In this document: one piece after another, positions 17,397 to 63,012 of the stretch | Layout: every line of letters starts with the position of its first letter | Position numbering within the stretch: position 1 is the stretch's first letter | Program-made: the position numbers and the translations under genes | The notes under the pieces: model-generated | Told to the model about the DNA's origin: nothing | Databases searched by the model: none | What the model saw: the letters and a program-made list of their open reading frames with translations, nothing else | NCBI GenBank assembly: GCA_019244185.1 | Contig: JAFATB010000013.1 | Location: 66,438-130,437 of the forward strand | Length of the DNA: 64,000 bases | Direction: 5' to 3' | Origin: Acidobacteriota bacterium | Lineage (GTDB): Bacteria; Acidobacteriota; Thermoanaerobaculia; Gp7-AA8

Positions 17397-19193
17397 TTGG
17401 ATTTCGCGCTGCCGGACCTGCTGACTCGCCGCGAGCGGACGATCGTCTGGATCGTCGCGCTCGTCTGTGCGGCGTCGCGCTTCCTGGCCATGGCGCGCTC
17501 GGTGTGGGACTGGGACGAGGCGCTCTTCTGCCTCGCCATGCGCGACTACGACGTCACGCTGCACCATCCGCATCCGCCGGGGTTCCCGCTGTACATCGCC
17601 ATGGCGAAGATGCTGCGCTTCGTCATTCCGAGCGACTTCCGCGCGCTGCAGGCGGTGAACCTCATCGCCGGGATGCTCGTCTTTCCGGCGATGTTCCTGC
17701 TCGCGCGCGAGCTGCGGCTGCGCTTCCGCACGTCGGTCATCGCCGCGGCGCTCTTCGCGTTTTTCCCGAACGTCTGGTTCTTCGGCGGCGGCGCGTTCAG
17801 CGACATCCCGTCGATCGTGGTGGTCGTGTTCGCGGCGGCGCTGCTGTTCCGCGGCGCGCGCGACCGCAACGCGTACTGGCTCGGTACGTTTCTCCTGGCG
17901 ATCGCGATCGGCATCCGTCCGCAGAATCTGCTGGTCGGACTCTTTCCCGGCATCTACGCGACGCGCAGACGGAAGCCGGGCGAGATCGCGGTCGCGCTGC
18001 TGATGGGCATCGTCATCACGGCCGCCGCATTCGGCGGCGCGGTGTACGCGACGGGCAACGCGCACGAGTACCTGCGCGTCGTGCGCGAGCATGGCGACTA
18101 CATCTCGCGGATTGATTCGTTCCGCAGTCCGGATCGTCCGCCGCTGTGGCGGCTCTTCGATCGCTTCTTCATCAAGCAGTACCAGTCGCCGGCGCTGAGC
18201 ATCCTCACGTCGATCGCCGTGGCGATCTCGATCGTGGGCGCGATCCGCACGCGCAGCAGGCCGATGCTCTGGAACGCGCTGACGTTCGGGCCGTTCGCGA
18301 TCTTCGCGTGGATGATGCTCGACCGCTTCAGCATCAGCCGCTTCTCGATCGGCTACGCGCCGATGTTCGCGTTCTTCGCCGCGGACGGTTTCGAGCGCAT
18401 CGAACGCTTCGTGACGATCCGCCGACCATCATGGAGAGTCGCGGTGCCGCTCGCGATCGCGCTGATCGCCGGTTTCATCGCGTACACGCTGCCGGCGCTG
18501 ACGCCGGTGCGCAACGAGGTCGCGCCGTCCATCCTCGCGGCGCGCGCGGTCGCGGAGCACGTCGATCCGCGGACCGATCAACTCTTCGCCGGACACACGA
18601 TGTCGAAGTTCCTCGACCTCGTGCTGCCGGGCATGCCGTACACGCGCGTGATGGACGACCGCGCCATGCCGCTCTCCGCGCGCGGCCGCGCGTGGCTGCT
18701 CGCGGAGATCACGGAGACGAAACCGGAGGGCTACGTCTTCACGCGCGAGCGCGGGCATCTCTGGAACATCGCGCGCCGGCATTACTTCGAGATCAAGCTC
18801 GCGCCGATCGTCGAGCGCCCGCGGTTCATCTCCGGCTGGTACGGCCCGGAAGTCACCGACATTCACGAGTGGCGCTGGATGGGACGCCGTTCCGTGACGC
18901 TGCTGCCGCCGATGCCGGAACGGACATCGGGCCGCACGCTGTTGCGGATGCACATCGGCATTCCGGGCGAGGTGATGCCGCTCAATCCGCGGATCACGAT
19001 CCGCCTCAACGGCCGCGTGGTCGACGAGTTCCACACGACCGAGGGATATCTCGAACGCGACTATCGCGTCGACGCGGCGCCGCGCGGACTGCCGAACGTG
19101 CTCGAGCTGTCGATCGACCGCACGGTCACTCCGAAGGACGACGGCCGCGAGCTGGGGCTGCGGGTGCGCTATCTCGGATGGGGACCAGCGTAG
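17397..19193 (+). CDS. GT39/ArnT-like membrane glycosyltransferase with C-terminal soluble domain
   Basis: TTG start. About 10 TM helices with the DxD-like DWDE loop near the N-terminus (SVWDWDEALF), typical of PMT/ArnT/GT83-GT39 glycosyltransferases, plus a ~200-aa C-terminal domain. Confidence 0.55.
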   Translation: MDFALPDLLTRRERTIVWIVALVCAASRFLAMARSVWDWDEALFCLAMRDYDVTLHHPHPPGFPLYIAMAKMLRFVIPSDFRALQAVNLIAGMLVFPAMFLLARELRLRFRTSVIAAALFAFFPNVWFFGGGAFSDIPSIVVVVFAAALLFRGARDRNAYWLGTFLLAIAIGIRPQNLLVGLFPGIYATRRRKPGEIAVALLMGIVITAAAFGGAVYATGNAHEYLRVVREHGDYISRIDSFRSPDRPPLWRLFDRFFIKQYQSPALSILTSIAVAISIVGAIRTRSRPMLWNALTFGPFAIFAWMMLDRFSISRFSIGYAPMFAFFAADGFERIERFVTIRRPSWRVAVPLAIALIAGFIAYTLPALTPVRNEVAPSILAARAVAEHVDPRTDQLFAGHTMSKFLDLVLPGMPYTRVMDDRAMPLSARGRAWLLAEITETKPEGYVFTRERGHLWNIARRHYFEIKLAPIVERPRFISGWYGPEVTDIHEWRWMGRRSVTLLPPMPERTSGRTLLRMHIGIPGEVMPLNPRITIRLNGRVVDEFHTTEGYLERDYRVDAAPRGLPNVLELSIDRTVTPKDDGRELGLRVRYLGWGPA

Positions 19194-22093: not shown

Positions 22094-25000
22094 ATGACCA
22101 TTACCGCTGAACAACGCCAGGTCGACATCGTCGATCGGCTCGCGGCCGAGGCGCGGCGCCGGGTGCCTGCCGAGCAGGCGGACAGCGTCGAGCATTTCGT
22201 TCGCCGTTACTTCGCGCACGTCGCGTCCGACGACATCATCTACACCTCTCACGAGACGCTCCTCGGCGGCGCGCTGTCGCTCTGGGACTTCGGCACGGAA
22301 CGCCAGCCGGGCCGCGCGAAGATCCGCCTCTTCAACCCCACCGTCGAGCAGAACGGCTGGTCCACCGAGCACACGGTCGTCGAGATCGTGAACGACGACA
22401 TGCCGTTCCTCGTCGACTCCGTCAGCGCCGAGATCAACCGGCGCGAGCGCAAGATCCATCTGCTGCTCCATCCGGTCGCGCGCGTGCGCCGCGACGCGGG
22501 CGGGCGGCGGATGGAGATCACCGACACGGCCGCCGCGCCGGCCGACGCGCTGGTCGAGTCGTACATGCACGTCGAGATCGACCAGGAGACCGAGCCCGCC
22601 GAGCTCGAGTCGATCCGCGCGTCGCTCGAGACGATCCTCAACGAAGTGCGCCTGGCGGTGCTCGACTGGCGCCCGATGCGCGCGCGGCTCACCGAAGACG
22701 TCGAAGAGCTCGACCGCGCGAAGCTGCCCATGCCCGCCGAGGAAGTGGCCGAGGCGCGCGCCTTCCTGCGCTGGCTCGACACCGGGAACTTCATCTTCCT
22801 CGGGCATCGCCGCTATCTCTTCGAGACGAAAGACGGCAAGGACTACCTCCGTCCGGTGCCGAACACGGGACTGGGAATCCTGCGCGACATGCGCCCGGAA
22901 TCGATCGAGCGCGGCAACGCGCCGCTGTCGGCCGAGTTCAGCGAATACGCGCGGCGCAAAGACCTCATCATCATCACGAAGGCGAACAGCCGCAGCCTGA
23001 TCCATCGCCCGGTGCCGATGGACCGCATCGGCATCAAGCGCTACGACGAAGCGGGGAACCTCATCGGCGAGGACCGCTTCCTCGGACTGTTCACGTCCGC
23101 CGCGTACATCCGCAGCGTGCGCGACATCCCGATGCTGCGGTTGAAGGCGACGCGCGCGCTCGACCGCGCCGGACTCGATCCGCATTCGCACAACGGCAAG
23201 GCGCTCGTCGACATCCTCGAGAACTTTCCGCGCGACGAGTTCTTCCAGATCACCGACGACGATCTCTTCGACATCTCGCGCGGCGTGCTGCTGCTGCAGG
23301 AACGCCAGCGCGTGGCGCTCTTCACACGCAAGGACGTCTTCGAGCGCTTCGTCGCCTGCTACGTCTTCGTGCCGCGCGACCGTTACACGCCCGAATTCAA
23401 AGAGCGCGCGCGGCAGGTGCTCGAAGAAGCGTTCAACGGACGCGACACCGTCATCTACGACCTCATCACCACGTCCCCGCTCGCGCGCGGACTCTTCATC
23501 GTGCGCACGAAGCCGGGACAGATCCCCGACGTCGACATCCGCCGCGTCGAGGCGCTGATCGGCGAAGTCGCGCGCACGTGGAGCGATCGCCTCCTCGACG
23601 CGCTGATCCACACGCACGGCGAAGAAGTCGGCATCGACCTCCACCATCGCTACAAACGAGCGTTCCCGATGGCGTACGCGGAGCGGTTCGCCGCCGAGGC
23701 CGCGCTGTACGACATCCAGCACGTCGAGCACGTGCTGGCGACGGGAGAGCTCGTCGTCGATCTGTACCGGCATCGCACAGACGAGCGGCAGTTCCACTGC
23801 AAGATCATCCATTCGGGTCCGCCGGTGCCGCTGTCGGAGATCATGCCGCGCCTCGAGAACATGGGGCTCAAGGTGCTGGCGGAAGTGCCGTACGAAGTGC
23901 AGCCGCACGGCGCGCCGTACGCGGTGCGCATCCGCGACTTCAGCCTCTCCGGCGAAGGGATGCAGGACGATCTCACGCCGATCAAGGAGAAGTTTCAGGA
24001 CGCGTTCATCCGCGTCTGGAAGAGCCAGGCGGAGAACGACGGATTCAACCGGCTCGTGCTCGGCGCGGGGCTGGAATGGGACGAAGTCGTCGTGCTGCGC
24101 GCGTATGCGAAGTATCTGCGCCAGGTCGGCGTCACGCTCAGCGAGGCGTACATCCAGGAGACGCTGGCGAAACATCCGGAGATCACGCGCAACATCATCA
24201 CGCTCTTCCGCAACTATTTCGATCCGGAGCTCGGTCCGTCCGCCTATCGCGGCGTGCAGAGCTCGACGGTCGGCATGGGACGGCAGGGCGCGGCGCTCGG
24301 CATCCGCTCGCAGATCGAGGACGCACTCGAGCGCGTCACGAATCCCGACGAAGACCGCATTCTGCGGCTGTACGTGAGCCTCATCGACGCCACGCTGCGG
24401 ACGAACTACTTCCAGCGCGACGCGAACGGCGCGCGCAAGTTGTACCTCTCGTTCAAGCTCGACTCGCAGGCCGTGCCCGAGCTGCCGCTTCCGCGGCCGC
24501 TGTTCGAGATCTTCGTGTACGCGCCCTGGATGGAAGGCATCCATCTGCGCGGCGGCAAGGTCGCGCGCGGCGGCATCCGCTGGTCCGATCGCCGCGAGGA
24601 CTTCCGCACGGAGATCCTCGGCCTGATGAAGGCGCAGATGGTCAAGAACGTCGTCATCGTGCCGGTCGGCTCGAAGGGCGGCTTCGTCGTGAAGAACCCG
24701 TCGCCCGATCGCGCGACGTTCCAGCAGGAAGGCATCGAGTCGTACAAGACGCTGCTGCGCGGCATGCTCGACATCACCGACAACCTGCGCGGCGCCGAAG
24801 TCATCCCGCCGCGCGACGTCGTGCGCCGCGATCCCGACGATCCGTACCTCGTCGTCGCCGCCGACAAAGGCACGGCCACGTTCTCCGACATCGCGAATGC
24901 GATCTCCGAGGAGTATGGCCACTGGCTCGGCGATGCGTTCGCGTCCGGCGGCTCCGCCGGCTACGACCACAAAGGCATGGGCATCACCGCGCGCGGCGGG

Positions 25001-26950
25001 TGGGAGGCGGTCAAGCGCCACTTCCGCGAGCTCGGTACGAACATTCAGGAAGAAGATTTCACCGTCGTCGGCGTCGGCGACATGGCCGGCGACGTCTTCG
25101 GCAACGCGATGCTGCTCTCGCCGCACACGAAACTTCTCGCGGCGTTCAACTACTCGCACATCTTCGTCGATCCGAATCCCGAGCCGGCGCCGACGTTCGT
25201 CGAGCGCAAGCGGATGTTCGACAACCGCCTGAACTGGAACGCGTTCAACGCGGATCTCTTGTCGAAGGGCGGCGCGATCTACGAGCGCAGCGCGAAGAGC
25301 ATCACCCTCAGCGAGGAAGTGCAGGCGCTCTTCGAGCTGCCGAAGAAGGTCGTGACGCCGAACGAGCTGATGCGCGCGATCCTGCTCGCGAAGGCGGACC
25401 TGCTGTGGCTCGGCGGCATCGGGACGTACGTCAAAGCGTCGTGGGAAGACCACGCCGCCGCGCGCGACCGCGCCAACGATGCGCTGCGCGTCAACGGCGA
25501 CGAACTGCGCGTGCGCGTCGTCGGCGAGGGCGCGAACCTCGGCTTCACGCAGCGCGCGCGCATCGAATACGCGCTGGCCGGCGGCAAGATCAACACCGAC
25601 GCCATCGACAACTCCGCCGGCGTCGACACGTCGGATCACGAGGTCAACATCAAGATCGCGCTCTACGACGCGGTCGGCAGCGGCGAGCTCGGCGATCTCA
25701 CGGAGCGCAACCGCATCCTCGCCGAGATGACCGACGAGGTCGCGCATCTCGTGCTGCGCGACAACTACGAACAGACGCAGGCCATCTCCGTCGTGCACGC
25801 CCTCGGCGAAGGCCTGCTCGACACGCAGGCGCGCTTCATGCGCGGCCTCGAGAAGCAGGGGAAGCTCGACCGCGCGCTCGAAGGTTTGCCCGACGACGAG
25901 ACCATCGGCGAGCGCCACGCGCGAGGCGTCGGCCTCACGCGTCCCGAGATCGCCGTGCTCCTCGCGTACGCGAAGCTCGTCCTGTATGAGGACCTGCTGA
26001 AGTCGAACCTGCCGGACGATCCGCAGCTCGTCGACGATCTCGTGCTGTACTTCCCCGAGCTGCTGCAGATGCGCTTCCGCGGCCCGATCGAACGGCATCG
26101 CCTGCGCCGCGAGATCATCGCCACCGTCGTCACCAACGCGATGATCAACCGCGTGCGGCCGACGTTCGCGTGGCAGATGTGCGAGGAGACCTCTCGCACG
26201 CCGGCCGACATCGCGCGCGCGTTCATCGTCATGCGCGAGGCGTTCGACCTCCGCACGATCTGGTCGGAGATCGAGGCGCTCGACAACAAACTCCCGGCCA
26301 GCGTGCAGACGGACATGATGATCAGCGTCGCGCGGCTGCTCGAGCGCGCGATCCTCTGGCTGCTGCGCAGCTCCGACGAACAGCTCGACATCGCCGCGTC
26401 GATCGCGGAGTTCCGTCCGCGCATCGCGTCCATCCAGGGCAACCTCGTCGACGTGCTTCCCGCCGGCGTGCTCGCGAACGTGCGCGTGCGCCAGGCGGAG
26501 CTGATGGAAGACCAGATCCCCGAGCCGCTCGCGCGGCGCGTGGCCAGTCTCGACATCATGAGCTCGGCCATGGACATCATCCGCATCTCGCGCACCGACG
26601 CCGCGCACGGCGTCGAGGACGTCGCGCGCATCTACTTCGGCCTCGGCGCGCGCCTCAGCCTCGACCGCCTGCGCAGCGCCAGCGCGAACATCGCCGCGGA
26701 AACTCCGTGGCAGAAGCAGGCGCTCTCGACGCTGGTCGACGATCTGTACAACTTCCAGAGCGCGCTCGCCTCGCGCGTCATCACCGAGACGAACGGCAGC
26801 GGCGATCCGGTCGACGCGTGGCTGGCGAAACGCCCGCGCGCGGTCGAGCGCGTCGATCAGACGATGTTCGAGCTGCGCGCGGCGACGCAGGTCGATCTGG
26901 CCATGCTCGCCGTCGCGTCGCGCCAGTTGCGCGCGCTCGTGGAGTCTTGA
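22094..26950 (+). CDS. gdhB: NAD-specific glutamate dehydrogenase, large (~180 kDa) form
   Basis: 1618-aa protein with the central catalytic domain conserved in the large bacterial NAD-GDH family (GGIRWSDRREDFRTEILGLMKAQMVKNVVIVPVGSKGGFVVK). Confidence 0.9.
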   Translation: MTITAEQRQVDIVDRLAAEARRRVPAEQADSVEHFVRRYFAHVASDDIIYTSHETLLGGALSLWDFGTERQPGRAKIRLFNPTVEQNGWSTEHTVVEIVNDDMPFLVDSVSAEINRRERKIHLLLHPVARVRRDAGGRRMEITDTAAAPADALVESYMHVEIDQETEPAELESIRASLETILNEVRLAVLDWRPMRARLTEDVEELDRAKLPMPAEEVAEARAFLRWLDTGNFIFLGHRRYLFETKDGKDYLRPVPNTGLGILRDMRPESIERGNAPLSAEFSEYARRKDLIIITKANSRSLIHRPVPMDRIGIKRYDEAGNLIGEDRFLGLFTSAAYIRSVRDIPMLRLKATRALDRAGLDPHSHNGKALVDILENFPRDEFFQITDDDLFDISRGVLLLQERQRVALFTRKDVFERFVACYVFVPRDRYTPEFKERARQVLEEAFNGRDTVIYDLITTSPLARGLFIVRTKPGQIPDVDIRRVEALIGEVARTWSDRLLDALIHTHGEEVGIDLHHRYKRAFPMAYAERFAAEAALYDIQHVEHVLATGELVVDLYRHRTDERQFHCKIIHSGPPVPLSEIMPRLENMGLKVLAEVPYEVQPHGAPYAVRIRDFSLSGEGMQDDLTPIKEKFQDAFIRVWKSQAENDGFNRLVLGAGLEWDEVVVLRAYAKYLRQVGVTLSEAYIQETLAKHPEITRNIITLFRNYFDPELGPSAYRGVQSSTVGMGRQGAALGIRSQIEDALERVTNPDEDRILRLYVSLIDATLRTNYFQRDANGARKLYLSFKLDSQAVPELPLPRPLFEIFVYAPWMEGIHLRGGKVARGGIRWSDRREDFRTEILGLMKAQMVKNVVIVPVGSKGGFVVKNPSPDRATFQQEGIESYKTLLRGMLDITDNLRGAEVIPPRDVVRRDPDDPYLVVAADKGTATFSDIANAISEEYGHWLGDAFASGGSAGYDHKGMGITARGGWEAVKRHFRELGTNIQEEDFTVVGVGDMAGDVFGNAMLLSPHTKLLAAFNYSHIFVDPNPEPAPTFVERKRMFDNRLNWNAFNADLLSKGGAIYERSAKSITLSEEVQALFELPKKVVTPNELMRAILLAKADLLWLGGIGTYVKASWEDHAAARDRANDALRVNGDELRVRVVGEGANLGFTQRARIEYALAGGKINTDAIDNSAGVDTSDHEVNIKIALYDAVGSGELGDLTERNRILAEMTDEVAHLVLRDNYEQTQAISVVHALGEGLLDTQARFMRGLEKQGKLDRALEGLPDDETIGERHARGVGLTRPEIAVLLAYAKLVLYEDLLKSNLPDDPQLVDDLVLYFPELLQMRFRGPIERHRLRREIIATVVTNAMINRVRPTFAWQMCEETSRTPADIARAFIVMREAFDLRTIWSEIEALDNKLPASVQTDMMISVARLLERAILWLLRSSDEQLDIAASIAEFRPRIASIQGNLVDVLPAGVLANVRVRQAELMEDQIPEPLARRVASLDIMSSAMDIIRISRTDAAHGVEDVARIYFGLGARLSLDRLRSASANIAAETPWQKQALSTLVDDLYNFQSALASRVITETNGSGDPVDAWLAKRPRAVERVDQTMFELRAATQVDLAMLAVASRQLRALVES

Positions 26951-47161: not shown

Positions 47162-47799
47162 TCGAGGATCCGCAGTTCCATGACGCCGCCGATGGTCATC
47201 TTCGTGATGTGCGACCGCGGCGTGACCCAGACGTCGTGCACGTGATTCGTGTTCGCGTCGGTGAAGCGGTAGTGGCCCGGCTCGACGAGCTGCGCCGTCC
47301 CTTCTTTCTTCTGCGGATCGAAGGCGAGCGTGACGCGCTGGTAGAAGCGCACGCCGTACGGCGGCGCATCGACGTGCTGCCATTGTCCGCCGATGCGCTT
47401 CTCCCACGGCACGCCGCGCGGTCCCGCCGCCGCGCGCCACTCCGTGCCGTCCGCGCGGAACGTCACCCGCTCCTGCCCGATGCGCGCACGCGTCATCTCG
47501 CCTTCCGCGTGCACGCCGCTCTCATCGAGGACGAAGCGAAAGCGCGGCACGGACTTGAACCACAGCAGCGCGTCGTCGTACGTGCCGCCGACCGGCGGCG
47601 GCACCGCCGGCATCGTCGCGGTGGGAATCGTGCTGGTCGGGATCGTCGCGGTCGTTGACGTCGTCGGCGCGGTTGGTGCGGATCGCGTGGCAGTCGATTG
47701 CGTCGCGGTCGATGCGGCCGGCTGCTCGCGCGAGCATGCGGCGAGCAGCAGCGCGACGAGCAGAACAGGTTTACGGAAACGTTCGCATTGCATTGGCAA
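47158..47799 (-). CDS. hypothetical lipoprotein with Thr/Pro/Ala-rich linker
   Basis: Lipobox LLAACS and a low-complexity linker (TSTTATIPTSTIPTATMP). Confidence 0.5.
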   Translation of the reverse strand: MPMQCERFRKPVLLVALLLAACSREQPAASTATQSTATRSAPTAPTTSTTATIPTSTIPTATMPAVPPPVGGTYDDALLWFKSVPRFRFVLDESGVHAEGEMTRARIGQERVTFRADGTEWRAAAGPRGVPWEKRIGGQWQHVDAPPYGVRFYQRVTLAFDPQKKEGTAQLVEPGHYRFTDANTNHVHDVWVTPRSHITKMTIGGVMELRILE

Positions 47800-47833
47800 G
47801 AGCGAATGCTACTCTGACCCCGAGGCCCTGATC

Positions 47834-49096
47834 ATGCGGAACCAATGGTGGTGGTGGGTGTTGACCGGCGTCGCGCTCGGCGTCGCCGTCTTCGGAGTTA
47901 CGCGCTTGCCTCTCGGCGACGATCCGATCGTCGAGCTCGCGCAACTCGCACCGCCCAATCGTCCCGCACCGCCGCTGCCGTTCTTCGTTCCCGAAACGCC
48001 GTCGCTCGAACCGCCACCCGAGGCGTCGGCGAACATTCCGACGCTGGGCGAGGCCTCGCAGGCGAAGATCGAGCTGCGCATCAAGTCCCTCGGGCGCGAG
48101 CTCGCGGAGATGTGGACGCGCGATCCGGAGAAGCTCGTGGTCGTGATCGACGACGCCGCGCGTTCGTTCCCGAGCGCGCCGTCCGTCACGCTGCTCCTCG
48201 CCATCGCGCACGCGGAGACGAACGGCAAGATCCTCGACGTCTCCGAGGCGGGCGCCGTCGGACTCGCGCAGGCGACGCCGGTCGCGTATCGCCAGGAGCA
48301 TTTCGACGGGAAGCTCTTCGTCACGAAGGACTATCTCATCGGCTCGCGCGCCTACATCATGAAGAAGCCCCTCGGCGATGCCGACACGATCGCCACGCTC
48401 ATCGTCGATCAGGACTCGCCCGCGCGCCGCAAGCGCGCGAAGCATCTGCTGCACGCGGCGAAGGAGCTCCGCCGCGAAGGCATCGACGAGCTCGATCTGC
48501 TCTCGCCGTTTGGGTCGAAGAAGTACTACGCCGACATCAAACACGCGGACGAGCACAACAAGGCCGCGCTCAAAGAGCTCGAGCATCTGCTCGACCACGG
48601 CTCGCGCGCCGAACTGCGCGCGTTCCGCAACCGCGTGCGGACGGAATACCGCTCGCTGAAGGCGACGCAGCTCGCGTCGTGGGCGCGCTATCAGAAAGAC
48701 CTCATCGCGAAGCGCGACCGCATGCTCGAACAGCACTTCGGCGTCGACCGCCGCACGGTCACGCGCACGATGGCCTACGAGGCGAGCGAGTACCTCGGCG
48801 AGCATCTCGACGACCGCTTCTCGGCGAAGAGCATGGCGAAGTTCCTCGTGCGTCATCTCGAGCGGAAAGCGGTCGAGGCGCGGAAGCTCGCGCCGCCGGA
48901 CGCCGACGTCGAGGAGATGACCGCGGCGCTCTACAACGGCGGCTCGCACAACGTGAAGCGGATGCTGGCGGGGCTCATCCGCACGCTGCCCGAGACCGAG
49001 AAGTACATGCGCAAAGTGCCCGCGACGCGGCGCCGCCTCGACAGCGTGATCGCCGGCGCGTCGCTCGGCGAAACGCCGGTGCGGACGCTGCGCTGA
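47834..49096 (+). CDS. membrane-anchored lytic transglycosylase (SLT domain) family protein
   Basis: Internal ATG at 47834 (MRNQWWWWVLTGVALGV = TM anchor). SLT catalytic signature AHAETNG...SEAGAVGLAQATP. Confidence 0.6.
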   Translation: MRNQWWWWVLTGVALGVAVFGVTRLPLGDDPIVELAQLAPPNRPAPPLPFFVPETPSLEPPPEASANIPTLGEASQAKIELRIKSLGRELAEMWTRDPEKLVVVIDDAARSFPSAPSVTLLLAIAHAETNGKILDVSEAGAVGLAQATPVAYRQEHFDGKLFVTKDYLIGSRAYIMKKPLGDADTIATLIVDQDSPARRKRAKHLLHAAKELRREGIDELDLLSPFGSKKYYADIKHADEHNKAALKELEHLLDHGSRAELRAFRNRVRTEYRSLKATQLASWARYQKDLIAKRDRMLEQHFGVDRRTVTRTMAYEASEYLGEHLDDRFSAKSMAKFLVRHLERKAVEARKLAPPDADVEEMTAALYNGGSHNVKRMLAGLIRTLPETEKYMRKVPATRRRLDSVIAGASLGETPVRTLR

Positions 49097-50968: not shown

Positions 50969-51798
50969 TCTCGCGCCGCGCGTTTTCTTCCACGCTCGTC
51001 GCCGGAGCGGCCGCAATGGCGTCGCCGCTGCGACTCGCTGCCGCGACGCCGGCTGCAGCGGTCGCGCCGCTGCGCATCCAACGCCTGTCGTGGGCGGGCA
51101 TCCGCCTGGAGACGCCGGAGACGACGCTCTTCATCGATCCGTGGACGTCGAAGGCGGCGTGGGGCGGCACGTGGCCGCGCCCGATCGTGCCGCTCGAGGC
51201 GTCGAGCAAGCGCCGCTCGGTGCTCATCACGCACCTGCACAACGATCACTTCGACGCGGCGGCGCTGAAGCTGCTGCTGGCCGAAGGCGGCGCGGTGTTC
51301 TGCCTCGACAAGCTCGCGCCGGTCGTCGCGTCGAAAGGGCTCGTCGCGCGGCCGGTCGAGCTCTTTCATCCCGAGGCGTTCGGCGACTTCGTGTTCATCC
51401 CCGTGTCCGCCGCGGACGGCTTCGGCGAGACGCAGGTGTCGTGGATCGTGAAGGCCGCGGGCATGAACCTCATCCACTGCGGCGACACCGTTTGGCACAG
51501 CGGCTTCGAGCTCGACGGCCGCGCGTACGGTCCGTTCGACGTCGCGTTTCTGCCGATGAACGGCGCCGTGATCCGCGGACGCCCGATCGACGTCGACGTC
51601 CCCGCGACAATGACGCCCACGCAGGCGGTCGCCGCGGCGCTGCTGCTGCGCGCGAAGCTGGTCGTGCCGATCCACTACGGCGTCTCCGAGGACGACTACC
51701 GCGAAGAGCCGAACGCGATCGAGGAGACGAAGCAGCTCGCCGCAGCGAAAGGCGTCGCGGTGCGCTTCGTCGATGAAGGCGAGTGGGTGATCAAGTAG
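50965..51798 (+). CDS. metallo-beta-lactamase-fold metallo-hydrolase with Tat signal peptide
   Basis: Twin-arginine motif (SRRAFSS...AAAMA). HxHxDH metal-binding motif (THLHNDHFD) and the downstream His/Asp pattern of the metallo-beta-lactamase fold. Confidence 0.75.
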   Translation: MISRRAFSSTLVAGAAAMASPLRLAAATPAAAVAPLRIQRLSWAGIRLETPETTLFIDPWTSKAAWGGTWPRPIVPLEASSKRRSVLITHLHNDHFDAAALKLLLAEGGAVFCLDKLAPVVASKGLVARPVELFHPEAFGDFVFIPVSAADGFGETQVSWIVKAAGMNLIHCGDTVWHSGFELDGRAYGPFDVAFLPMNGAVIRGRPIDVDVPATMTPTQAVAAALLLRAKLVVPIHYGVSEDDYREEPNAIEETKQLAAAKGVAVRFVDEGEWVIK

Positions 51799-53065
51799 TT
51801 GACCTTCCGTCGCGCGTCCGGTCGCCGATTCGTTCACCGGTGATGAGGCGCGCGCCGCGCTGATAGGTGAGGTACGCCCATGCCCACTGCGTGATGACGA
51901 GGAAGCGGTTGCGGAAGCCGATGAGAAAGAAGATGTGGATGACCAGCCAGGCCAGCCACGCGAAGAAGCCGCCGAAGCGGATGCGTCCGAAGTCGGCGAC
52001 GGCGGCGGCGCGGCCGATCGTCGCCAGGGAGCCTTTGTCGCGGTAGCGGAACGCGCGCAGCGGCTGTCCTTCGAGCGCGCGCTCGAGATTGCGCGCGGTG
52101 TGCTGTCCTTCCTGAATCGCGGCCGGCGCGACGCCGGGCACGAACGCGCCGTCGCGCTGCTTCGCCGCGGCGAGATCGCCGATTACGAAAACGTCGCGGT
52201 GTCCCGGAATCGTCAGCTCCGGCTCGACGAGTACGCGTCCGGCGCGATCGAGCGGCACGCCGAGCGAATGCGCGAGCGGCGAGGCCTGCACGCCCGCGCC
52301 CCACAGCACCGTCCGCGTCGCAATCGAACGCTCGCCGATGCAGACCTCGGTATCGTTGACGCCAGTGACGATCGCGCCGGTGATGACCTCGACGCCGAGG
52401 TGGACGAGTTGCTTGCGCGCGCTCTCGGAGAGCGAGGGAGGATACGGAGGCAGCACGCGCTCGCGCCCTTCGGTGAGGATGACGCGCGCGCCTTCGGGAT
52501 GGATGCGGCGGAAGTCGCGGAGCATGGTCTGGCGCGCGATCTCGGAGAGCGCGCCCGCGAGCTCGACGCCGGTGGGTCCGCCGCCGATCACGACGAACGT
52601 GAGCAGCGCCTGCTGCGTCGCGGGATCCTCCTCGCGTTCGGCGGCCTCGAAGGCGAGCAGCACGCGGCGGCGGATCTCGAGCGCGTCGTCGATGGTCTTG
52701 AGCCCCGGCGCGAAGCGCTCCCATTCGGGATGGCCAAAGTACGAATGCGTGGCGCCGGTGGCGATGACGAGATAGTCGTACGCGAGCGTCGCGCCGTCGG
52801 CGAGGTGCACCTGTTTCTGTGCAGCGTCGACGGACGTGGCGTCGCCGAGGATCACCTCGACGTTTTTCTGGTGGCGCAGGATCGCGCGGATCGGCGCGGC
52901 GATGTCGCTCGGATTCAGCGCCGCGGTGGCGACCTGATAGAGCAGGGGCTGGAAGAGATGGTAGTTGTGGCGGTCGACGAGCGTGATCGCGCAGTCGGCG
53001 TGCGCGAGACCGCGCGCGGCGTAGAGGCCGGCGAAGCCGCCACCGAGGATGACGACGTGAGACAT
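51791..53065 (-). CDS. ndh: type II NADH dehydrogenase (NDH-2) / NAD(P)/FAD-dependent oxidoreductase
   Basis: Two Rossmann GxGxxG motifs (VVILGGGFAGL; VVIGGGPTGVELAG) and a C-terminal amphipathic membrane-anchor helix. Confidence 0.9.
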   Translation of the reverse strand: MSHVVILGGGFAGLYAARGLAHADCAITLVDRHNYHLFQPLLYQVATAALNPSDIAAPIRAILRHQKNVEVILGDATSVDAAQKQVHLADGATLAYDYLVIATGATHSYFGHPEWERFAPGLKTIDDALEIRRRVLLAFEAAEREEDPATQQALLTFVVIGGGPTGVELAGALSEIARQTMLRDFRRIHPEGARVILTEGRERVLPPYPPSLSESARKQLVHLGVEVITGAIVTGVNDTEVCIGERSIATRTVLWGAGVQASPLAHSLGVPLDRAGRVLVEPELTIPGHRDVFVIGDLAAAKQRDGAFVPGVAPAAIQEGQHTARNLERALEGQPLRAFRYRDKGSLATIGRAAAVADFGRIRFGGFFAWLAWLVIHIFFLIGFRNRFLVITQWAWAYLTYQRGARLITGERIGDRTRDGRSTT

Positions 53066-53075
53066 CGCGGTGAGT

Positions 53076-53366
53076 TTATGCGGGGTCGTTGCCGAAGCGT
53101 TCCGCGAACTCGCGCACGATGCGGCGCATGTCGTCGAGCAACGCGGGATCTTCCGCGAGGCGCTGTTTGACGGCGACGAGGAACGGCACGTCCGGCTCGT
53201 CTTCGGGCGACCCGTTGCGCTCGATGAACTCGAGCCAGCTATCCGGGTTTCCGTCGAAGACGTTGAGCAGGATCTGAACGCGGGCGAAGTTCTCGGCCAC
53301 TCCCCAGAAACTCCAACGCGGAGCCCAATCGATCACATCGACCGAGTCGTGCGCACCAAAAGCCAA
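53076..53366 (-). CDS. hypothetical small acidic protein
   Basis: 96-aa ORF, genome-typical codon usage, no domain recognised. Confidence 0.4.
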   Translation of the reverse strand: MAFGAHDSVDVIDWAPRWSFWGVAENFARVQILLNVFDGNPDSWLEFIERNGSPEDEPDVPFLVAVKQRLAEDPALLDDMRRIVREFAERFGNDPA

Positions 53367-53428
53367 TCAACACCCCTTCACTACGACACTCAACTGAAGG
53401 AGTGACGGAGAGAGGGCGTTCCCTACCA

Positions 53429-53830
53429 TCAATCCTTGCCGATCTTTGCGAGCTCAGGCTTGCCGACCCAGCGGCCCCACGAAAAGCAGCGCGTGCAGGT
53501 GAAGGTGTAGTCGGTTACGCCGGTCTCGGGATTCTCCTTCGCCGCGGTCTCCATCTTGGCCTGGCAGCGGTAGCAGAGGATGGCGTCGCCGCGCTGCAGG
53601 TTCTCGACGAAGCCCTCGACCTGCTGGTCGTAGAACTCCATCTGCTTCGGCCGCTGCGGGATCGTGAGCGTCTCCTTGCCGCGCGAGCAGGTGAGGAAGA
53701 TGTGATCGGCGAAGGTGGTCTGGACGAAGCTGCCGGTGAGCGTGGCGCCGGGATGGCGCGGGCAGGCGATCGGTTTCCCGGCCCAGAACGCGCGGGCGAG
53801 CTCGCGGGACTGTTCGACTTCGGTCGGCAT
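53429..53830 (-). CDS. hypothetical Cys-rich protein (two zinc-ribbon-like CxxC pairs)
   Basis: 133 aa with CPRH...C, CYRC and CTRC pairs. Confidence 0.45.
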   Translation of the reverse strand: MPTEVEQSRELARAFWAGKPIACPRHPGATLTGSFVQTTFADHIFLTCSRGKETLTIPQRPKQMEFYDQQVEGFVENLQRGDAILCYRCQAKMETAAKENPETGVTDYTFTCTRCFSWGRWVGKPELAKIGKD

Positions 53831-53864
53831 GCGCGCCGAATTGTAGCGGACGCCGCCGCCGCCG

Positions 53865-54992
53865 TTACCGCCGCGCCGCTTCGATCGCGCGAAAGACGCG
53901 GAGGAAGTTCCCGCCGAGGACTTTCGCGACGTCGCCTTCGCTCATGCCGCGATCGAGGAGACGCGCGGTGAGCAGCGGCAGCCCGGCCGCGGTCGCGAGC
54001 TCGGTGGGCAGCGCCGGCACGCCGTCGAAGTCGCTGCCGATGCCGACGTGATCGATGCCCGCGACTTCCGCCGCGTGGAAGATGTGATCGGCGACCTGGT
54101 CGAGCGTCGCGGACGGACAGCCGAGCGTCTGGAACCACTTCAGGTACGTGTCCCAGTCCGTGCGATCGTCCGGCAGCTCCTCGGTACCGCCGGTGCCGTC
54201 GCGATAGGGATCGGCGCGGCGCTTCTGCGCCTTCATGATCACCTGCGCGACGTCATCGCTGATGAACGCGGAGAAGAAGTTGATCATGCAGACGCCGCCG
54301 TTCTCCGCGAGCGCGCGGAGCATGTCGTCGGTCATGTTGCGCGGATGGCGGCAGAGCGCGCGGCACGACGAGTGCGTCGCGACGACCGGCACGCGCGTGG
54401 TCTCGATGACGGCGCGGAACGCGTCGTCGGAGACGTGCGAGACGTCGACGATCATGCCGAGGTCGTTCATCGTGCGCACGACGTCGCGCCCGAAGTCGGT
54501 GAGGCCGCCGTGGCGCGGCGCGTCGCCGGACGAGTCGCACCAGTTGTTCGTGTTCACGTGCGTGAGGGTCAAGTAGCGCGCGCCGCTGGCGTAAAGCTCG
54601 CGCAGGATGTCGAGCGAGTCTTCAATGGCGTGGCCGCCTTCGACGCCGATCATGAGCGCGAGCTTGCCGTCGCGTTTCGCCGCGACGATGCCGTCGCTGT
54701 CGTCCGCGAACGTGAGCACGTCGGTGCGGCGCGCAGCTTCCTCGCGGATGATGCGGATCAGCTTCCGCGCGAAGTCCGCCGCGCCGCGGTTCGCGTAAAA
54801 CGGCGGGACGTACGCGGCGAAGAACGACGCGGTCACGCCCCCCGCGCTCAGCGACTGCAAATCCGCCTGCGCCTCGGTATCGTGCTCGTCGAGATGGACG
54901 TTGTGCCGGAAGAGGCGATAGGGCGTGTCGCAGTGGGTGTCGACGACGATCGCGCGGCGATGGACGTCGTCACTCTTCGCTGAGATAGGCAT
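53865..54992 (-). CDS. membrane dipeptidase, peptidase family M19
   Basis: Renal-dipeptidase fold motifs (VVDTHCDT, GVEGGHAIEDSL, THVNTNNW, DVSHVSD, GIGSDFDG). Confidence 0.9.
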   Translation of the reverse strand: MPISAKSDDVHRRAIVVDTHCDTPYRLFRHNVHLDEHDTEAQADLQSLSAGGVTASFFAAYVPPFYANRGAADFARKLIRIIREEAARRTDVLTFADDSDGIVAAKRDGKLALMIGVEGGHAIEDSLDILRELYASGARYLTLTHVNTNNWCDSSGDAPRHGGLTDFGRDVVRTMNDLGMIVDVSHVSDDAFRAVIETTRVPVVATHSSCRALCRHPRNMTDDMLRALAENGGVCMINFFSAFISDDVAQVIMKAQKRRADPYRDGTGGTEELPDDRTDWDTYLKWFQTLGCPSATLDQVADHIFHAAEVAGIDHVGIGSDFDGVPALPTELATAAGLPLLTARLLDRGMSEGDVAKVLGGNFLRVFRAIEAARR

Positions 54993-55644
54993 CGATCCGG
55001 TCGAGCTCCTTCACCATCGACGTGAAGTCCGCGAAGAGAAACTCCGCCTTCCCGAGGAGCTCGCGGGGGAAGCCGCCGCTGAGCACCGCGATGATCGGGA
55101 TGGGGATGCGATGCGCGGAGAGGATGTCGTACGGCGTGTCGCCGACGGCGAAGGTCCGTTCCGGATCGCTGCCCACCTGATCGAGCGCGGCCTGAAAAAT
55201 CTCGGGAGACGGTTTCGAGAACTGCGCGTCTTTCTTCGACGTCGATCCCTCGAGGAGATCGGCGGCGTCGAGAAGCTCGACATAGTACTCGACCTCGTCC
55301 GGATTCGAAGACGATGCGAAGGCGAGCTTGATGCCGCGCGCGGCGAGGACGTCGAGCCCCTCGCGCACGCCGGGGAACGGCTGCACCGTGCGCATGTAGG
55401 TCTCGGTCCAGAGCTTGCCGCGGAACTTCTTCAGCTCTTCGCCGAAGCGCTGCATCTCGCGCGCGCTGAGCGTGTCGGGCACGAGGAGATCGCCGCCCTT
55501 GCCGATCTGCGCGCGGATGACGTCGCGCGGGATGTCTTTCCCGAATTTCGCGAACGCCTCGATCCAGCAGTCGGCGTGTTTGTCGTTGGAGTCGACGAGC
55601 GTGCCGTCGATGTCGAGAAGGAGCGCTTCGATGTGTCGCGTCAC
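54970..55644 (-). CDS. HAD-superfamily hydrolase (subfamily IA)
   Basis: Motif I DxD (LLLDIDGTLVD), motif II S/T, and a C-terminal GDTPYD motif. Confidence 0.85.
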   Translation of the reverse strand: MTRHIEALLLDIDGTLVDSNDKHADCWIEAFAKFGKDIPRDVIRAQIGKGGDLLVPDTLSAREMQRFGEELKKFRGKLWTETYMRTVQPFPGVREGLDVLAARGIKLAFASSSNPDEVEYYVELLDAADLLEGSTSKKDAQFSKPSPEIFQAALDQVGSDPERTFAVGDTPYDILSAHRIPIPIIAVLSGGFPRELLGKAEFLFADFTSMVKELDRIDAYLSEE

Positions 55645-56363
55645 GCGCGCGGACGTAGCAACTTCTGTGCGATGTAGACGGCGTGCCCTTTCGGCACCCG
55701 CGCGCCCGCGCCGTAGCCGCGCGCGACGCGCACGCGGAATCCGGCGCCGCGCAGCAATGCGAGCAACTCGGCGCGGTCGTACAGCTCGAGCGTATGCGTC
55801 TCGTCGTCGCGCGCGACGCGGCCGTCGAGCTCGCGAAAGCTGAGCACGCGCCGCGTCAGCGTCCGCCCATCACTTTCACGCACGACGATGACGCTCCAGT
55901 CCTTGCCATCGACGCGATGCTCGTCGTGCGCCGGATACGAGTCGCGTTCGGCGACGTCGAAGAGCAGGAGTCCGTTCGCGCGCAATGCCGTCGAGGCGCG
56001 CGCGACGAACGCGCGGACGTCGTCGAACGTGCCGTAGTTCAGCACCTCGCCGACGGCGACGATCGCGTTCGCATCCGGCAGCTCGGCGCTCGCGAACGAA
56101 CCCTGAGCGAACCGCGCACGCGGCGCCGTTTCCCTCGCGATCGCCAGCATCGCCTCGGAGGCATCGATGCCGAAGACGTCGAAGCCCGCGTGCGTCAGCT
56201 CGCGCGCGAGGACGCCGCTGCCGCAGCCGGTGTCGACGACGAGTCCCTCGCGAATACCGTTCCGCCAAAGCCGCTCGAGGATGCCGAGCGAAGCCGCCTC
56301 CGCGAACCCGGTGAACCCTACGTGATGGATGTACGCAAGATCATCGCGATAGTGACTCGTCAT
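55641..56363 (-). CDS. class I SAM-dependent methyltransferase
   Basis: SAM-binding motif I VVDTGCGSGVL and a post-I acidic residue. 4-nt overlap with the HAD gene. Confidence 0.85.
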   Translation of the reverse strand: MTSHYRDDLAYIHHVGFTGFAEAASLGILERLWRNGIREGLVVDTGCGSGVLARELTHAGFDVFGIDASEAMLAIARETAPRARFAQGSFASAELPDANAIVAVGEVLNYGTFDDVRAFVARASTALRANGLLLFDVAERDSYPAHDEHRVDGKDWSVIVVRESDGRTLTRRVLSFRELDGRVARDDETHTLELYDRAELLALLRGAGFRVRVARGYGAGARVPKGHAVYIAQKLLRPRA

Positions 56364-56447
56364 CGAGAAATTCAGTGCAGCCGCACGTGCCGATAGGCTA
56401 GGCCCTAAGCGCAGCCGGCCGCGCCGGCCCGCCGGAGGCGCTCCCCG

Positions 56448-57863
56448 TCAATGTTCGTGCGCCCTGAGAAACGTCTCCGGCTTCGAGAACACCTTCGCGA
56501 TGTTCATCCCCTTGCGCACGGCGCTCAGCGTCACCTTGCGGGTCGCGAGCGCGGCGCCGAGCTGGAGATACGTCTTCACCTTGCCCTTGTAGCGGTAGCG
56601 GACGTCGAGCGCGTGGCGCCAGAGCGCGGAGTATTCGGCGTAGAACTCGTCGAGCGGCAGCTTCGTCGGCAGCACGGTGTGGACGATGTCGTACATCTCC
56701 CACTCGTGCGTCGTCACCTGCTTCTTCGCGTGGTCCCAGAGATCGGTGCCGGGGAGCGGCGTGAGGATCGAGAAGCCGCTGTTGTAAGCGCCGGTCTGAT
56801 CGATCCAGTCGCGGAGGCGCGCGAAATCGTCGCGGTCCCACGCGGGATCGACGATGAAGTTCGGCGTGAAGCCGACGCCGAGGTCCTTGAGGATCTGGAT
56901 CGCGCGGACGTTGTTGTCGGCGGTGTTCTTCTTGTTGACCGCTTTGAGGCCTTCGTCGGTGACGGATTCGAGGCCGAGGAAGATCGCGAGGTCGCCGCAG
57001 TCCTTCCACTGCTCGATGAGATGCGGGAACTTGCAGATGATGTCGGTGCGCGTCTGCACGGTGAAGTACTTGCGGATGCCGGACGCCTTGATCTGCTTCG
57101 CCATCTCCTCGCCGCGGCGCACGTTCATCCAGAAGATGTCGTCGGTGATGAAGACGTTCGGCGCGGCGATCTGCTCGAGCTCCTTCACCACGCGCTCGGG
57201 CGACTTCTCGCGGAACGTCGACTCGTGAAACTTCCAGACCGAGCAGAAGTTGCACTTGAACGGGCAGCCGCGCGCGGTCTCCATGAGCGCGAGCGGCTTG
57301 CGGAAGTTGATGTAGTAGTGATCGGCATAGCGCGCGATGAGATGGCGCGCCGGCATCGGATACGAGTCGAGGTTCGGACGCGCGTCGGCGGCGCCGGTGT
57401 AGACCCACGCGCCGTTGCGCGGCACCTCGATGCCCTTGATCGCGGTGAGGTCCTTGCCGCGCGCGAGCGCGTCGACGAGCGGCGGCAGCACTTCCTCGCC
57501 GTCGCCGGCCGCGATCGCGTCGATGGCCGGATTGCGGAACCAGTCGGGATCGCGCGAGGCGTCGTGGCCGCCGATGACGATGAATGCGCGCGGCATCTCG
57601 CGGCGGATGCGCTGCGCGAGGCGGATCGTGCGGTTGCGCTCCGTCGTGAAGTTGCACTGCAGCCCGACCACGTCGGGATTGAACGTGCGGCAATCGGCCA
57701 TGCCGCGTTCCTCGCCGTCGATGCGCAGATCGAACACCGCGCACGTGTGCCCTTCCGCCTCGAGGCACGCCGCCACGCAGATCGGCCCGAGCGGCTCGAC
57801 GAACGTGAGCATCTCCAGGCCGAGAATGCCGCCGACCGGCGGCTTCAGAAACGCGATTTTCAT
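56448..57863 (-). CDS. B12-binding-domain radical SAM protein
   Basis: N-terminal cobalamin-binding Rossmann-like domain, then the radical SAM cluster motif CPFKCNFC (CxxxCxxC). Length about 470 aa, typical of class B radical SAM enzymes. Confidence 0.9.
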   Translation of the reverse strand: MKIAFLKPPVGGILGLEMLTFVEPLGPICVAACLEAEGHTCAVFDLRIDGEERGMADCRTFNPDVVGLQCNFTTERNRTIRLAQRIRREMPRAFIVIGGHDASRDPDWFRNPAIDAIAAGDGEEVLPPLVDALARGKDLTAIKGIEVPRNGAWVYTGAADARPNLDSYPMPARHLIARYADHYYINFRKPLALMETARGCPFKCNFCSVWKFHESTFREKSPERVVKELEQIAAPNVFITDDIFWMNVRRGEEMAKQIKASGIRKYFTVQTRTDIICKFPHLIEQWKDCGDLAIFLGLESVTDEGLKAVNKKNTADNNVRAIQILKDLGVGFTPNFIVDPAWDRDDFARLRDWIDQTGAYNSGFSILTPLPGTDLWDHAKKQVTTHEWEMYDIVHTVLPTKLPLDEFYAEYSALWRHALDVRYRYKGKVKTYLQLGAALATRKVTLSAVRKGMNIAKVFSKPETFLRAHEH

Positions 57864-61452: not shown

Positions 61453-63012
61453 TCAGAACCCCTGCTCGATGTGCTCGCCGAATGTCCGCTTCAAGGTCGC
61501 GACGATCTCGCCGATCGTGCTCTCGTTGCGCACCGCGTCGACGATGTGCGGCATGAGGTTCTCGCCGGAGCGCGCGGCGTCGTCGAGACGCGCGAGCGCG
61601 GACTGCCAGTCGCGCGTGCGGCTCGCGCGGAACGCCTGCAGCCGCGCGACCTGCTCGCGCTCGACGCTCTCGTCGATGACGAGGATCGGCAGCGTAGCGT
61701 CCTGCTCGTCGACGAACTCGTTCACGCCGACCACGATCGCGCTCTTGTCTTCCAGCGCGCGCTGCGCGCGGTAGGCCGAGTCGCCGATCTCGTGCTGCAT
61801 GAAGCCCGACTCGATGGCCGCGCGCGCGCCGCCCATCGCATCGATCTTCTCGATGAGGGCGCGCGCCTCGCGCTCGATGTCGAGCGTCAGCGCCTCGATC
61901 GCGTACGAGCCGGCGAGCGGATCGACGATCGCCGGCACGCCGCTCTCGTAGGCGAGGATCTGCTGCGTGCGCAGCGCGATCTTCACAGACTCTTCGGTCG
62001 GCAGCGCGAGCGCCTCGTCGCGGCTGTTCGTGTGCAGCGACTGGCAGCCGCCGAGGACCGCGGCGAGGGCCTGGTAGGCCACGCGGATCACGTTGTTCTC
62101 CGGCTGCTGCGCGGTGAGCGTGGAGCCCGCGGTCTGCGCGTGGAAGCGCAGCGCCAGCGAGCGCGGGTCTTTCGGCGCGTAACGCTCCCGCATCAGCTCC
62201 GCCCACAGCTTGCGCGCCGCGCGGAACTTCGCGACTTCTTCGATGAAATCGTTGTGCGCGTTGAAGAAGAACGAGATGCGCGGCGCAAAGGCGTCGACGT
62301 CGAGCCCGCGCTCGACCGCCGCCTGCACGTACTGCAGTCCGTTCGCGAGCGTGAACGCGACCTCCTGCACCGCCGTCGAACCGGCCTCGCGGATGTGATA
62401 GCCGGACACCGAGATCGTGTTCCAGCGCGGCACGTTCCTCGCGCAGAACTCGAAGATGTCGGTGACGATGCGCAGCGACGGCGCGGGCGGGAAGATGTAC
62501 GTGCCGCGCGCCGCGTACTCCTTGAGGATGTCGTTCTGGATCGTGCCGGAGAGCGTCTTCCAGTCCGTGCCGCGGCGTTCCGCGACGACGAGCAGCAGCG
62601 CGAGCAGAATCGACGCCGGCGCGTTGATGGTCATCGAGATCGACACCTTGTCGAGCGGGATCGCCTCGAGCAGCGTCTCCATGTCCGCGATCGAGTCGAT
62701 CGCCACGCCGACCTTGCCGACCTCGCCGCGTGCGCGTGCGTCGTCCGAGTCCATGCCGATCTGCGTTGGGAGATCGAAGGCGACGGAGAGTCCGGTCGTG
62801 CCGCGCTCGAGCAGATACCGGTAGCGCGCGTTCGATTCCGCGGCGGTCGAGAAGCCGGCGTACTGCCGCATCGTCCACAACTTGCCGCGGTACATCGACG
62901 CCTGTGGACCGCGCGTATACGGGAACGCGCCCGGAGCGGCGAGATCGGTTTCGGGATCGAAGCTGCGTTGGGCGAGGTCGGATTGCGTGTAAAGAGACTG
63001 CCGGTCGGCCAT
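61453..63012 (-). CDS. methylmalonyl-CoA mutase family, catalytic (substrate-binding TIM barrel) subunit only, no fused B12-binding domain
   Basis: 519 aa with conserved mutase N-domain motifs ([51 protein letters not shown]). The sequence ends without the C-terminal cobalamin-binding domain. Confidence 0.9.

Follow-up and report, generated by a model that had tools for sequence, protein, structure and literature searches.

The six consecutive minus-strand genes at positions 53076–57863 of the DNA stretch studied here are probably separate gene units in a collinear run shared at the level of a lineage, and not one biosynthetic pathway. The stretch, called the window below, comprises 64,000 nucleotides of contig JAFATB010000013.1 (assembly GCA_019244185.1) and represents a piece of chromosome rich in G+C (about 67%) from an uncultured Thermoanaerobaculia (Acidobacteriota) bacterium. 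In the order of reading the six open reading frames (ORFs) encode a cobalamin (B12)-dependent radical S-adenosylmethionine (SAM) enzyme, designated here as rSAM (56448–57863; 471 aa; B12-binding domain PF02310 and Radical_SAM domain PF04055), a class I SAM-dependent methyltransferase (MT; 55641–56363; 240 aa; Methyltransf_25/23/11), a HAD-IA family hydrolase/phosphatase (HAD; 54970–55644; 224 aa; HAD_2, 101.6 bits), an M19 renal-dipeptidase-type dipeptidase (M19; 53865–54992; 375 aa), a Cys/His-rich protein (Cys133; 53429–53830; 133 aa), and a small conserved hypothetical protein (hyp96; 53076–53366; 96 aa when counted from the first start codon). A type II NADH dehydrogenase (NDH-2; 51791–53065; 424 aa; Pyr_redox_2, 173.8 bits, and NDH2_C) follows on the same strand. 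Four evolutionary units are distinguished in this run, namely, rSAM, MT, the HAD–M19 pair, and M19–Cys133–hyp96 followed by NDH-2, which owe their collinearity to common ancestry in one sub-lineage.

The evidence comes from the comparison of about 150 related loci. One set was anchored on rSAM and contained the best 80 GTDB species-representative loci together with contigs carrying selected homologues, onto which the window proteins were mapped by tblastn; the second set was anchored on M19 and consisted of metagenome contigs. In the first set the 63 species-level loci whose sequence extends 3 kb or more downstream of rSAM were taken as informative, and partners were sought as far as the 3–8 kb of downstream sequence present in each locus. 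MT was found downstream of rSAM in 24 of these loci, most of which, flank permitting, continue in the order MT, HAD, M19, Cys133, hyp96, and NDH-2, and the remaining 39 loci (62%) contain rSAM without MT, HAD, or M19. The partner-less loci include the closest GTDB relative (L004, 87% identity), where a subtilase, a zinc-dependent alcohol dehydrogenase, and hypothetical proteins lie downstream. Relatives at 80–83% identity also have unrelated neighbours. In a sub-group of about 16 loci rSAM stands beside MglA/MglB/RecR/YbaB/DnaX-like genes, as judged by eye from the translations. The rSAM gene is also solitary among unrelated neighbours in all more distant homologues examined, among them the 63% identical relative P0121 and two homologues at 39–40% identity. 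When the flanking ORFs of 83 rSAM loci were clustered, no partner exceeded 21 loci, antisense artefacts aside. Thus, the neighbourhood is syntenic in some relatives and is not conserved with rSAM generally, and the interpretation in the preliminary description of this DNA is supported in part.

The junctions between the genes vary as well. In syntenic relatives the distance from rSAM to MT ranges from −13 to 4074 nt, from MT to HAD from 10 to 3924 nt, and from M19 to Cys133 from 7 to 2727 nt, and insertions of 0.4–4.4 kb, many of them on the opposite strand, interrupt all junctions but HAD/M19 in one relative or another. The inserted genes are unrelated and lineage-variable and include HYR-like secreted repeats, a DCC1/HTTM fusion, FA_hydroxylase, an amidohydrolase, LysE-type, and ankyrin-repeat genes. 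As a separate observation, large secreted repeat proteins of the HYR-like "TFALGTT...C" type are inserted at differing junctions in 8 relatives (L006:9742–12312, L009, L016, L022, L026, L035, L053, and L064), a protein with a faint HYR match lies about 5 kb from rSAM in the window genome itself (about 63120–64541, converted from L084:3323–4744), and the family behind these repeats seems to be mobile or in rapid expansion.

In the window the array is compact. All six ORFs were confirmed as co-directional and carry a coding signature (G+C content of third codon positions, GC3, 0.81–0.93, the lower value being that of hyp96, and of second positions, GC2, 0.40–0.49), in agreement with the preliminary description, whose gene overlaps, CPFKCNFC motif, and paired CxxC motifs are readable directly in the sequence and whose domain assignments of the four enzymes were confirmed by Pfam. 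The public gene call for hyp96 is shorter (74 aa, 53076–53300). A spacer of 84 nt (56364–56447) separates rSAM and MT, MT and HAD overlap by 4 nt (GTGA), HAD and M19 overlap by 23 nt, and gaps of 34 and 62 nt precede Cys133 and hyp96, respectively. Two earlier statements need amendment. The run does not end at 53076, because NDH-2 begins 10 nt past hyp96 as a seventh co-directional gene and comes after hyp96 in most syntenic relatives as well. Further, no transmembrane segment is predicted in any of the six proteins; therefore "membrane dipeptidase" is merely a Pfam family name and does not describe M19 as a membrane protein. Neither a terminator-like site on the minus strand nor sigma-70-like promoters were found, and a GC-rich hairpin in the rSAM–MT spacer, considered as a terminator, was rejected since it was not stabler than shuffled sequence (z = 0.46).

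In the reading that follows the preliminary description the six genes make up one operon-encoded tailoring pathway for one small molecule, lipid, or peptide, with radical C-methylation, O/N-methylation, dephosphorylation, and peptide-bond hydrolysis as its steps and the small proteins as accessories. Several facts speak for it and weigh against separate units. Co-transcription of the seven genes in the window genome is plausible because they run in one direction, no gap exceeds 84 nt, two junctions overlap, and no minus-strand terminator-like site was found; the complete order from rSAM to NDH-2 is kept in about 24 species; the loci L005, L013, L011, L014, and L023 are as compact as the window; and partners missing within 8 kb are not proof of genome-wide absence. 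Possible co-transcription in the window genome is, however, not evidence for shared function. A dedicated cluster keeps its neighbourhood wherever the key enzyme occurs and keeps its members contiguous, without unrelated or opposite-strand genes, and the related loci depart from both patterns: most informative rSAM loci and every more distant homologue checked have no partners, and the junctions other than HAD/M19 are interrupted by opposite-strand genes in one relative or another. Moreover, M19, Cys133, and hyp96 occur at the same chromosomal site without the other three genes, and M19 belongs to a generic and widespread type of dipeptidase, as described below. According to these data the single pathway is quite unlikely and already largely refuted by synteny, and the separate units, whose functions would be independent, remain the probable account.

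Within the run MT is a lineage-specific accessory gene that is less conserved than its neighbours (56–68% identity); it gave generic class I matches only and no NCBIfam equivalog. As a unit it would be an accessory class I methyltransferase placed behind rSAM in one sub-lineage only. A narrower alternative joins rSAM and MT in a two-gene module working on the same substrate in that sub-lineage, for example by C-methylation followed by O- or N-methylation, with the HAD–M19–Cys133–hyp96–NDH-2 genes as unrelated neighbours. MT does stand downstream whenever both genes share a locus, both in the 24 GTDB loci and in L090, L091, L093, and L108. The two genes apparently overlap in L005 (−13 nt) and L009 (−11 nt), these values being extrapolated from tblastn alignments with unverified start codons, and in L091 rSAM, an ORF of about 171 aa, and MT abut, which would fit an rSAM–MT operon in the sub-lineage; both observations add to the points opposed to separate units. 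The 171-aa ORF, which the module would include in relatives, was found between rSAM and MT in 11 of them, abutting or overlapping the MT start (L091:5486–6001, L006:12376–12885, L090:5498–6019, and 8 further loci). It has 43 invariant positions, zero Pfam matches, and zero PDB matches by sequence or profile, and it is missing from the window, where only the 84-nt spacer is present, having been lost or never present there. Against the module, rSAM is far more conserved (76–87% identity) and more widespread than MT and is alone in the majority of informative loci; in L006, L022, and L053 insertions of 1.8–4.1 kb lie between the two; and MT is present in L092 with no rSAM within 6 kb, beside a gene block that also flanks MT in L090. 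Thus, a common rSAM–MT module is rather unlikely, with an appreciable minority chance, and the assignment of the two genes to separate units is preferred.

The block mentioned consists of an opposite-strand DCC1-like/HTTM fusion, a 149-aa protein, and FA_hydroxylase, and is convergent with MT in several relatives (L090:6683–9020 and L092:6693–9059; also L024, L026, L027, and L048); it is absent from the window. In L092 it stands beside MT without a nearby rSAM. It may be the real functional partner of MT. The L092 contig (ENA ERZ25039588 contig_28952) belongs to a frameshift-rich, probably long-read, assembly of a close relative, the many frameshift errors being evident because alignments to homologues of three adjacent genes shift among several frames. 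Its identification as actinobacterial from Lsr2 and DUF4193 calls was rejected, and the gene calls and Pfam labels of this contig are untrustworthy.

The HAD and M19 genes form the only stable junction. They overlap by 23–29 nt in 17 of the 18 relatives with HAD, the exception being L006, which retains only a truncated HAD remnant; therefore translational coupling of the phosphatase-type HAD and M19 is suggested, and the third unit would be a HAD phosphatase and an M19 dipeptidase coupled in translation. The pair occurs without rSAM or MT in the 8.3 kb upstream in L094, and HAD is absent in L024, L027, L053, L097, and L154. HAD itself has sub-threshold matches only to the PGP and PpaX models and no NCBIfam equivalog, and no known pathway explaining the HAD–M19 pairing was found. 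M19 matches Peptidase_M19 (PF01244) with 351.4 bits over positions 2–318 of 319, and the nearest solved structure is that of Streptomyces Sco3058 (3id7; 245.7 bits, full length). Homologues of M19 at 43–48% identity are widespread in soil metagenomes without the partner genes, the exceptions being L133 with NDH-2 (60%) and L114 with rSAM. In the latter an rSAM homologue (67%; L114:1848–3260) lies 7 kb upstream of a distant M19 (48%) on a metagenome contig. In no other locus outside the sub-lineage do the rSAM and M19 families stand near each other, and the placement is probably a coincidence.

The most durable link of the whole run is that of M19 and Cys133 (window 53429–54992; also L097, L099–L107, and L154), which is kept down to 68% identity for M19 and 57% for Cys133. 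In L097 and L154 (M19 at 75–77% identity) the genes M19, Cys133, and hyp96 come directly after LolCE without rSAM, MT, or HAD, and the chromosomal site is the same, with CarA and LolCE divergent as in the window. The Cys133 family includes 518 homologues in 5.8 billion proteins, all from Thermoanaerobaculia, and has no Pfam/NCBIfam match. The protein is conserved along its entire length (75–88% identity, 56 invariant positions) and contains the motifs CYRC (87–90) and CTRC (112–115) together with C23/H26/H43/C48; both sets, C23/H26/H43/C48 and C87/C90/C112/C115, are invariant. Its AlphaFold2 model (mean predicted local distance difference test, pLDDT, 83.9) shows two helix-plus-three-strand repeats and has no fold match in the PDB (best E 0.05, template modelling score, TM, 0.22). 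Judging from the model, Cys133 looks like a folded protein with two predicted zinc sites, and it may serve the M19 dipeptidase as a partner or regulator specific to the lineage. The hyp96 protein, also without a Pfam/NCBIfam match, is conserved behind Cys133 at 40–70% identity, also in L097 and L154. The fourth unit would thus comprise M19, the lineage-specific small protein with two putative zinc sites, and a second small protein, and then NDH-2.

The presence of two small family-less ORFs in the same run, together with a weak match of rSAM to the TIGR03975 model (98.7 bits, cutoff 281.85) of C-methyltransferases acting on ribosomally synthesized and post-translationally modified peptides (RiPPs), could also be read as a RiPP-type system, with rSAM as a peptide C-methyltransferase, a small protein as the precursor, and M19 as the maturation peptidase. 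No short precursor with a variable core was found beside rSAM: neither small gene adjoins it, ORFs of this kind are missing near rSAM in most of its loci, and both Cys133 and hyp96 accompany M19 where rSAM is missing. Because Cys133 is conserved over its full length, resembles a folded protein with two zinc-site repeats, and is linked to M19 and not to rSAM, the RiPP reading is considered ruled out, its chance being very slight indeed, and Cys133 and hyp96 are retained as members of the M19 unit.

The first unit, rSAM, is an established member of the cobalamin-dependent (class B) radical SAM enzymes, with cobalamin binding being predicted. The B12-binding domain (61 bits) covers residues 17–127, the Radical_SAM domain scores 67.5 bits, and the CPFKCNFC motif is located at residues 200–207, where C200-x3-C204-x2-C207 is invariant across 30 orthologues. 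The AlphaFold2 model (pLDDT 73.7, predicted TM score 0.79) matched in Foldseek the solved cobalamin-dependent structures of CysS, OxsB, MgmA, TokK, and TsrM with E of about 1e-17 to 3e-15 and TM of 0.55–0.64, and AprD4 was also among the matches. The model fits all of these about equally; therefore structure does not discriminate among subfamilies, and naming the subfamily of rSAM in this way was abandoned.

Among curated NCBIfam models the best was that of the hopanoid methylase HpnR (TIGR04367), with 309.5 bits against a cutoff of 650. Residues 18–412 of rSAM align to positions 16–406 of the 490 positions of the model, that is, to the B12 and radical SAM core only, and the C-terminal region is therefore unmatched. 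A genuine HpnR (P0196), which ranks lower among the relatives, scores 788.7 bits over model positions 1–488 and is 33% identical to rSAM. In a neighbour-joining tree of 122 representatives (distance only, no bootstrap) the most recent common ancestor of rSAM and P0196 is the root, and the rSAM clade includes its own orthologues, P0121, and P0215 only. Thus, score, alignment coverage, and tree position rule out rSAM as HpnR, which upholds the earlier view of a hopanoid-methylase-like architecture in an enzyme of a different kind, and the phylogenetic placement that had been proposed as a check puts rSAM outside HpnR in an isolated clade. The second-best curated model was BchE (TIGR02026; 138.8 bits, cutoff 481.35), and every other named family scored lower; BchE, PhpK, TsrM, GenK-type, and RiPP rSAM families, all far under their cutoffs, were rejected too.

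When 1.84 billion cluster representatives (50% identity) were searched exhaustively, the rSAM group proved to contain one full-length relative at 63% identity (P0121; 326.9 bits on the HpnR model) and fragments, the next matches being at 41% or less; identity within the clade is at least 63% and to anything outside it at most 41%. Ten of these nearest outside families score 238–349 bits on the HpnR model, and one neighbour family at 35% identity is archaeal (Ca. Methanosuratincola). The best 80 genomic relatives all come from Thermoanaerobaculia or from Acidobacteriota metagenome-assembled genomes. The rSAM clade is described as isolated, uncharacterised, and Thermoanaerobaculia-restricted, "HpnR-like" but outside HpnR and any characterised subfamily. 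The family occurs in hundreds of Thermoanaerobaculia species and is tied to no gene cluster. Its identity across Thermoanaerobaculia, given above, is comparable to that of CarA at the same loci (79–83%), and where both are comparable, in the sub-lineage, rSAM reaches 84–87%; this conservation on a par with CarA therefore indicates strong purifying selection.

As for the chemistry, enzymes of the class most commonly methylate an unactivated carbon via methylcobalamin (PMC8992657; PMC13459092), and by this analogy rSAM is most likely a stand-alone cobalamin-dependent C-methylase. In the proposed course of reaction one SAM would methylate cob(I)alamin, a second SAM would be cleaved at the [4Fe-4S] cluster to give the 5′-deoxyadenosyl radical that takes a hydrogen atom from the substrate, and methylcobalamin would then give its methyl group. 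Methylation is merely the commonest outcome in the class, OxsB, BchE, Grs, and Ted showing other chemistries, and this tells against the assignment. Since rSAM is solitary among housekeeping genes, a general cellular molecule is favoured as its substrate over a cluster-encoded natural product and is probably the correct type. This molecule is possibly a lipid, which is suggested only by the HpnR-like affinity of rSAM and by analogy with the recently described archaeal lipid B12-radical SAM enzymes. In its full form, a Thermoanaerobaculia lipid-tail C-methylase or radical lipid modifier that would be aided by MT in one sub-lineage, the proposal draws on class membership, HpnR-like similarity, and housekeeping-like placement, and is unlikely, though not negligible. 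The literature offered no paper tying a Thermoanaerobaculia radical SAM enzyme to lipids, and no bacterial homologue of the rSAM clade is named in the papers on Mss/Tes/Ger and Gms/Gmm or in a 2026 review of lipid radical SAM enzymes.

Had the six genes been a conserved pathway, a soil lineage that is very abundant yet uncultured would have offered chemistry not explored so far; the comparison of loci shows no such pathway, and therefore the cluster itself is ordinary. Its lasting value lies in an uncharacterised family of cobalamin-dependent radical SAM enzymes, strongly conserved and cluster-independent, and Cys133 is a second, minor, lineage-specific uncharacterised protein. The B12-radical SAM class performs difficult chemistry on inert carbons, and several of its lipid-modifying members were found only recently. 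Bacterial branched tetraether lipids serve as palaeoclimate proxies, and to our knowledge the enzymes methylating them are still not identified. The rSAM family is a reasonable, unproven candidate for this role. As a lipid-tail methylase it would be a bacterial counterpart of the archaeal methylases of glycerol dialkyl glycerol tetraethers (GDGTs) and glycerol monoalkyl glycerol tetraethers (GMGTs) and a candidate for the extra methyl branches on acidobacterial membrane-spanning lipids of the branched GDGT type. According to the papers on bacterial membrane-spanning lipids, aerobic Acidobacteria are without Mss and the route by which they make these lipids is unresolved (PMC13159169).

The remaining genes of the window are housekeeping ones and encode a large NAD-glutamate dehydrogenase, acyl-CoA synthetase, a FadB-type enzyme, peptidases, kinases, methylmalonyl-CoA mutase, CarA, and LolC/E. 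The mutase (61453–63012) is another B12 enzyme encoded by the host. The glutamate dehydrogenase (22094–26950, plus strand) is a 1618-aa large NAD-specific enzyme with the full ACT and helical-motif domain set (Bac_GDH_CD, 823.7 bits). Two further plus-strand ORFs, at 17397–19193 (598 aa) and 47393–49096 (567 aa), have a good coding signature and zero Pfam matches at E ≤ 1e-5. A search of the whole window for riboswitches upstream of the genes and for other RNAs gave zero Rfam families and zero tRNA.

Among known systems HpnR shares with rSAM the N-terminal B12-binding Rossmann domain and the radical SAM core with CxxxCxxC, and differs in that rSAM reaches less than half of the model cutoff and leaves the C-terminal region unmatched. 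Like rSAM here, hpnR often stands alone and not in a dedicated cluster. No shc-like gene was seen in the window. For cultivated members of acidobacterial subdivisions 10 and 23, which are related, an absence of hopanoid production has been reported (PMC5462960). BchE has the same domain order as rSAM, which falls far below the cutoff of the BchE model, and the window contains no photosynthesis genes. The M19 dipeptidase resembles Sco3058 in its full-length match, both being soluble proteins, and differs in its context, as it is preceded by the overlapping HAD gene and followed by the lineage-specific zinc-site protein.

The solved cobalamin-dependent radical SAM enzymes CysS (9n1b), TokK (7kdx), MgmA (9ccb), TsrM (6wte), and OxsB (5ul4) have their overall fold in common with the rSAM model, and TokK is also similar in sequence (E 6e-18). 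They differ by sequence identity to rSAM of only 16–20%, with none standing out, and by their substrates, which are antibiotics, a protein side chain, and a nucleoside; mostly they are encoded in biosynthetic clusters, whereas rSAM is solitary. On the NCBIfam model of lipid B12-radical SAM enzymes (TIGR04072) rSAM scores 77.9 bits with a cutoff of 360, and no Tes, Mss, or Gms genes are found near it. The archaeal Gmm, GDGT methylases, GrsA/B, and Ted, which are likened to rSAM by enzyme class and not by sequence, are B12-radical SAM enzymes that modify inert lipid tails (PMC11214058; bioRxiv 10.1101/2025.10.20.683597).

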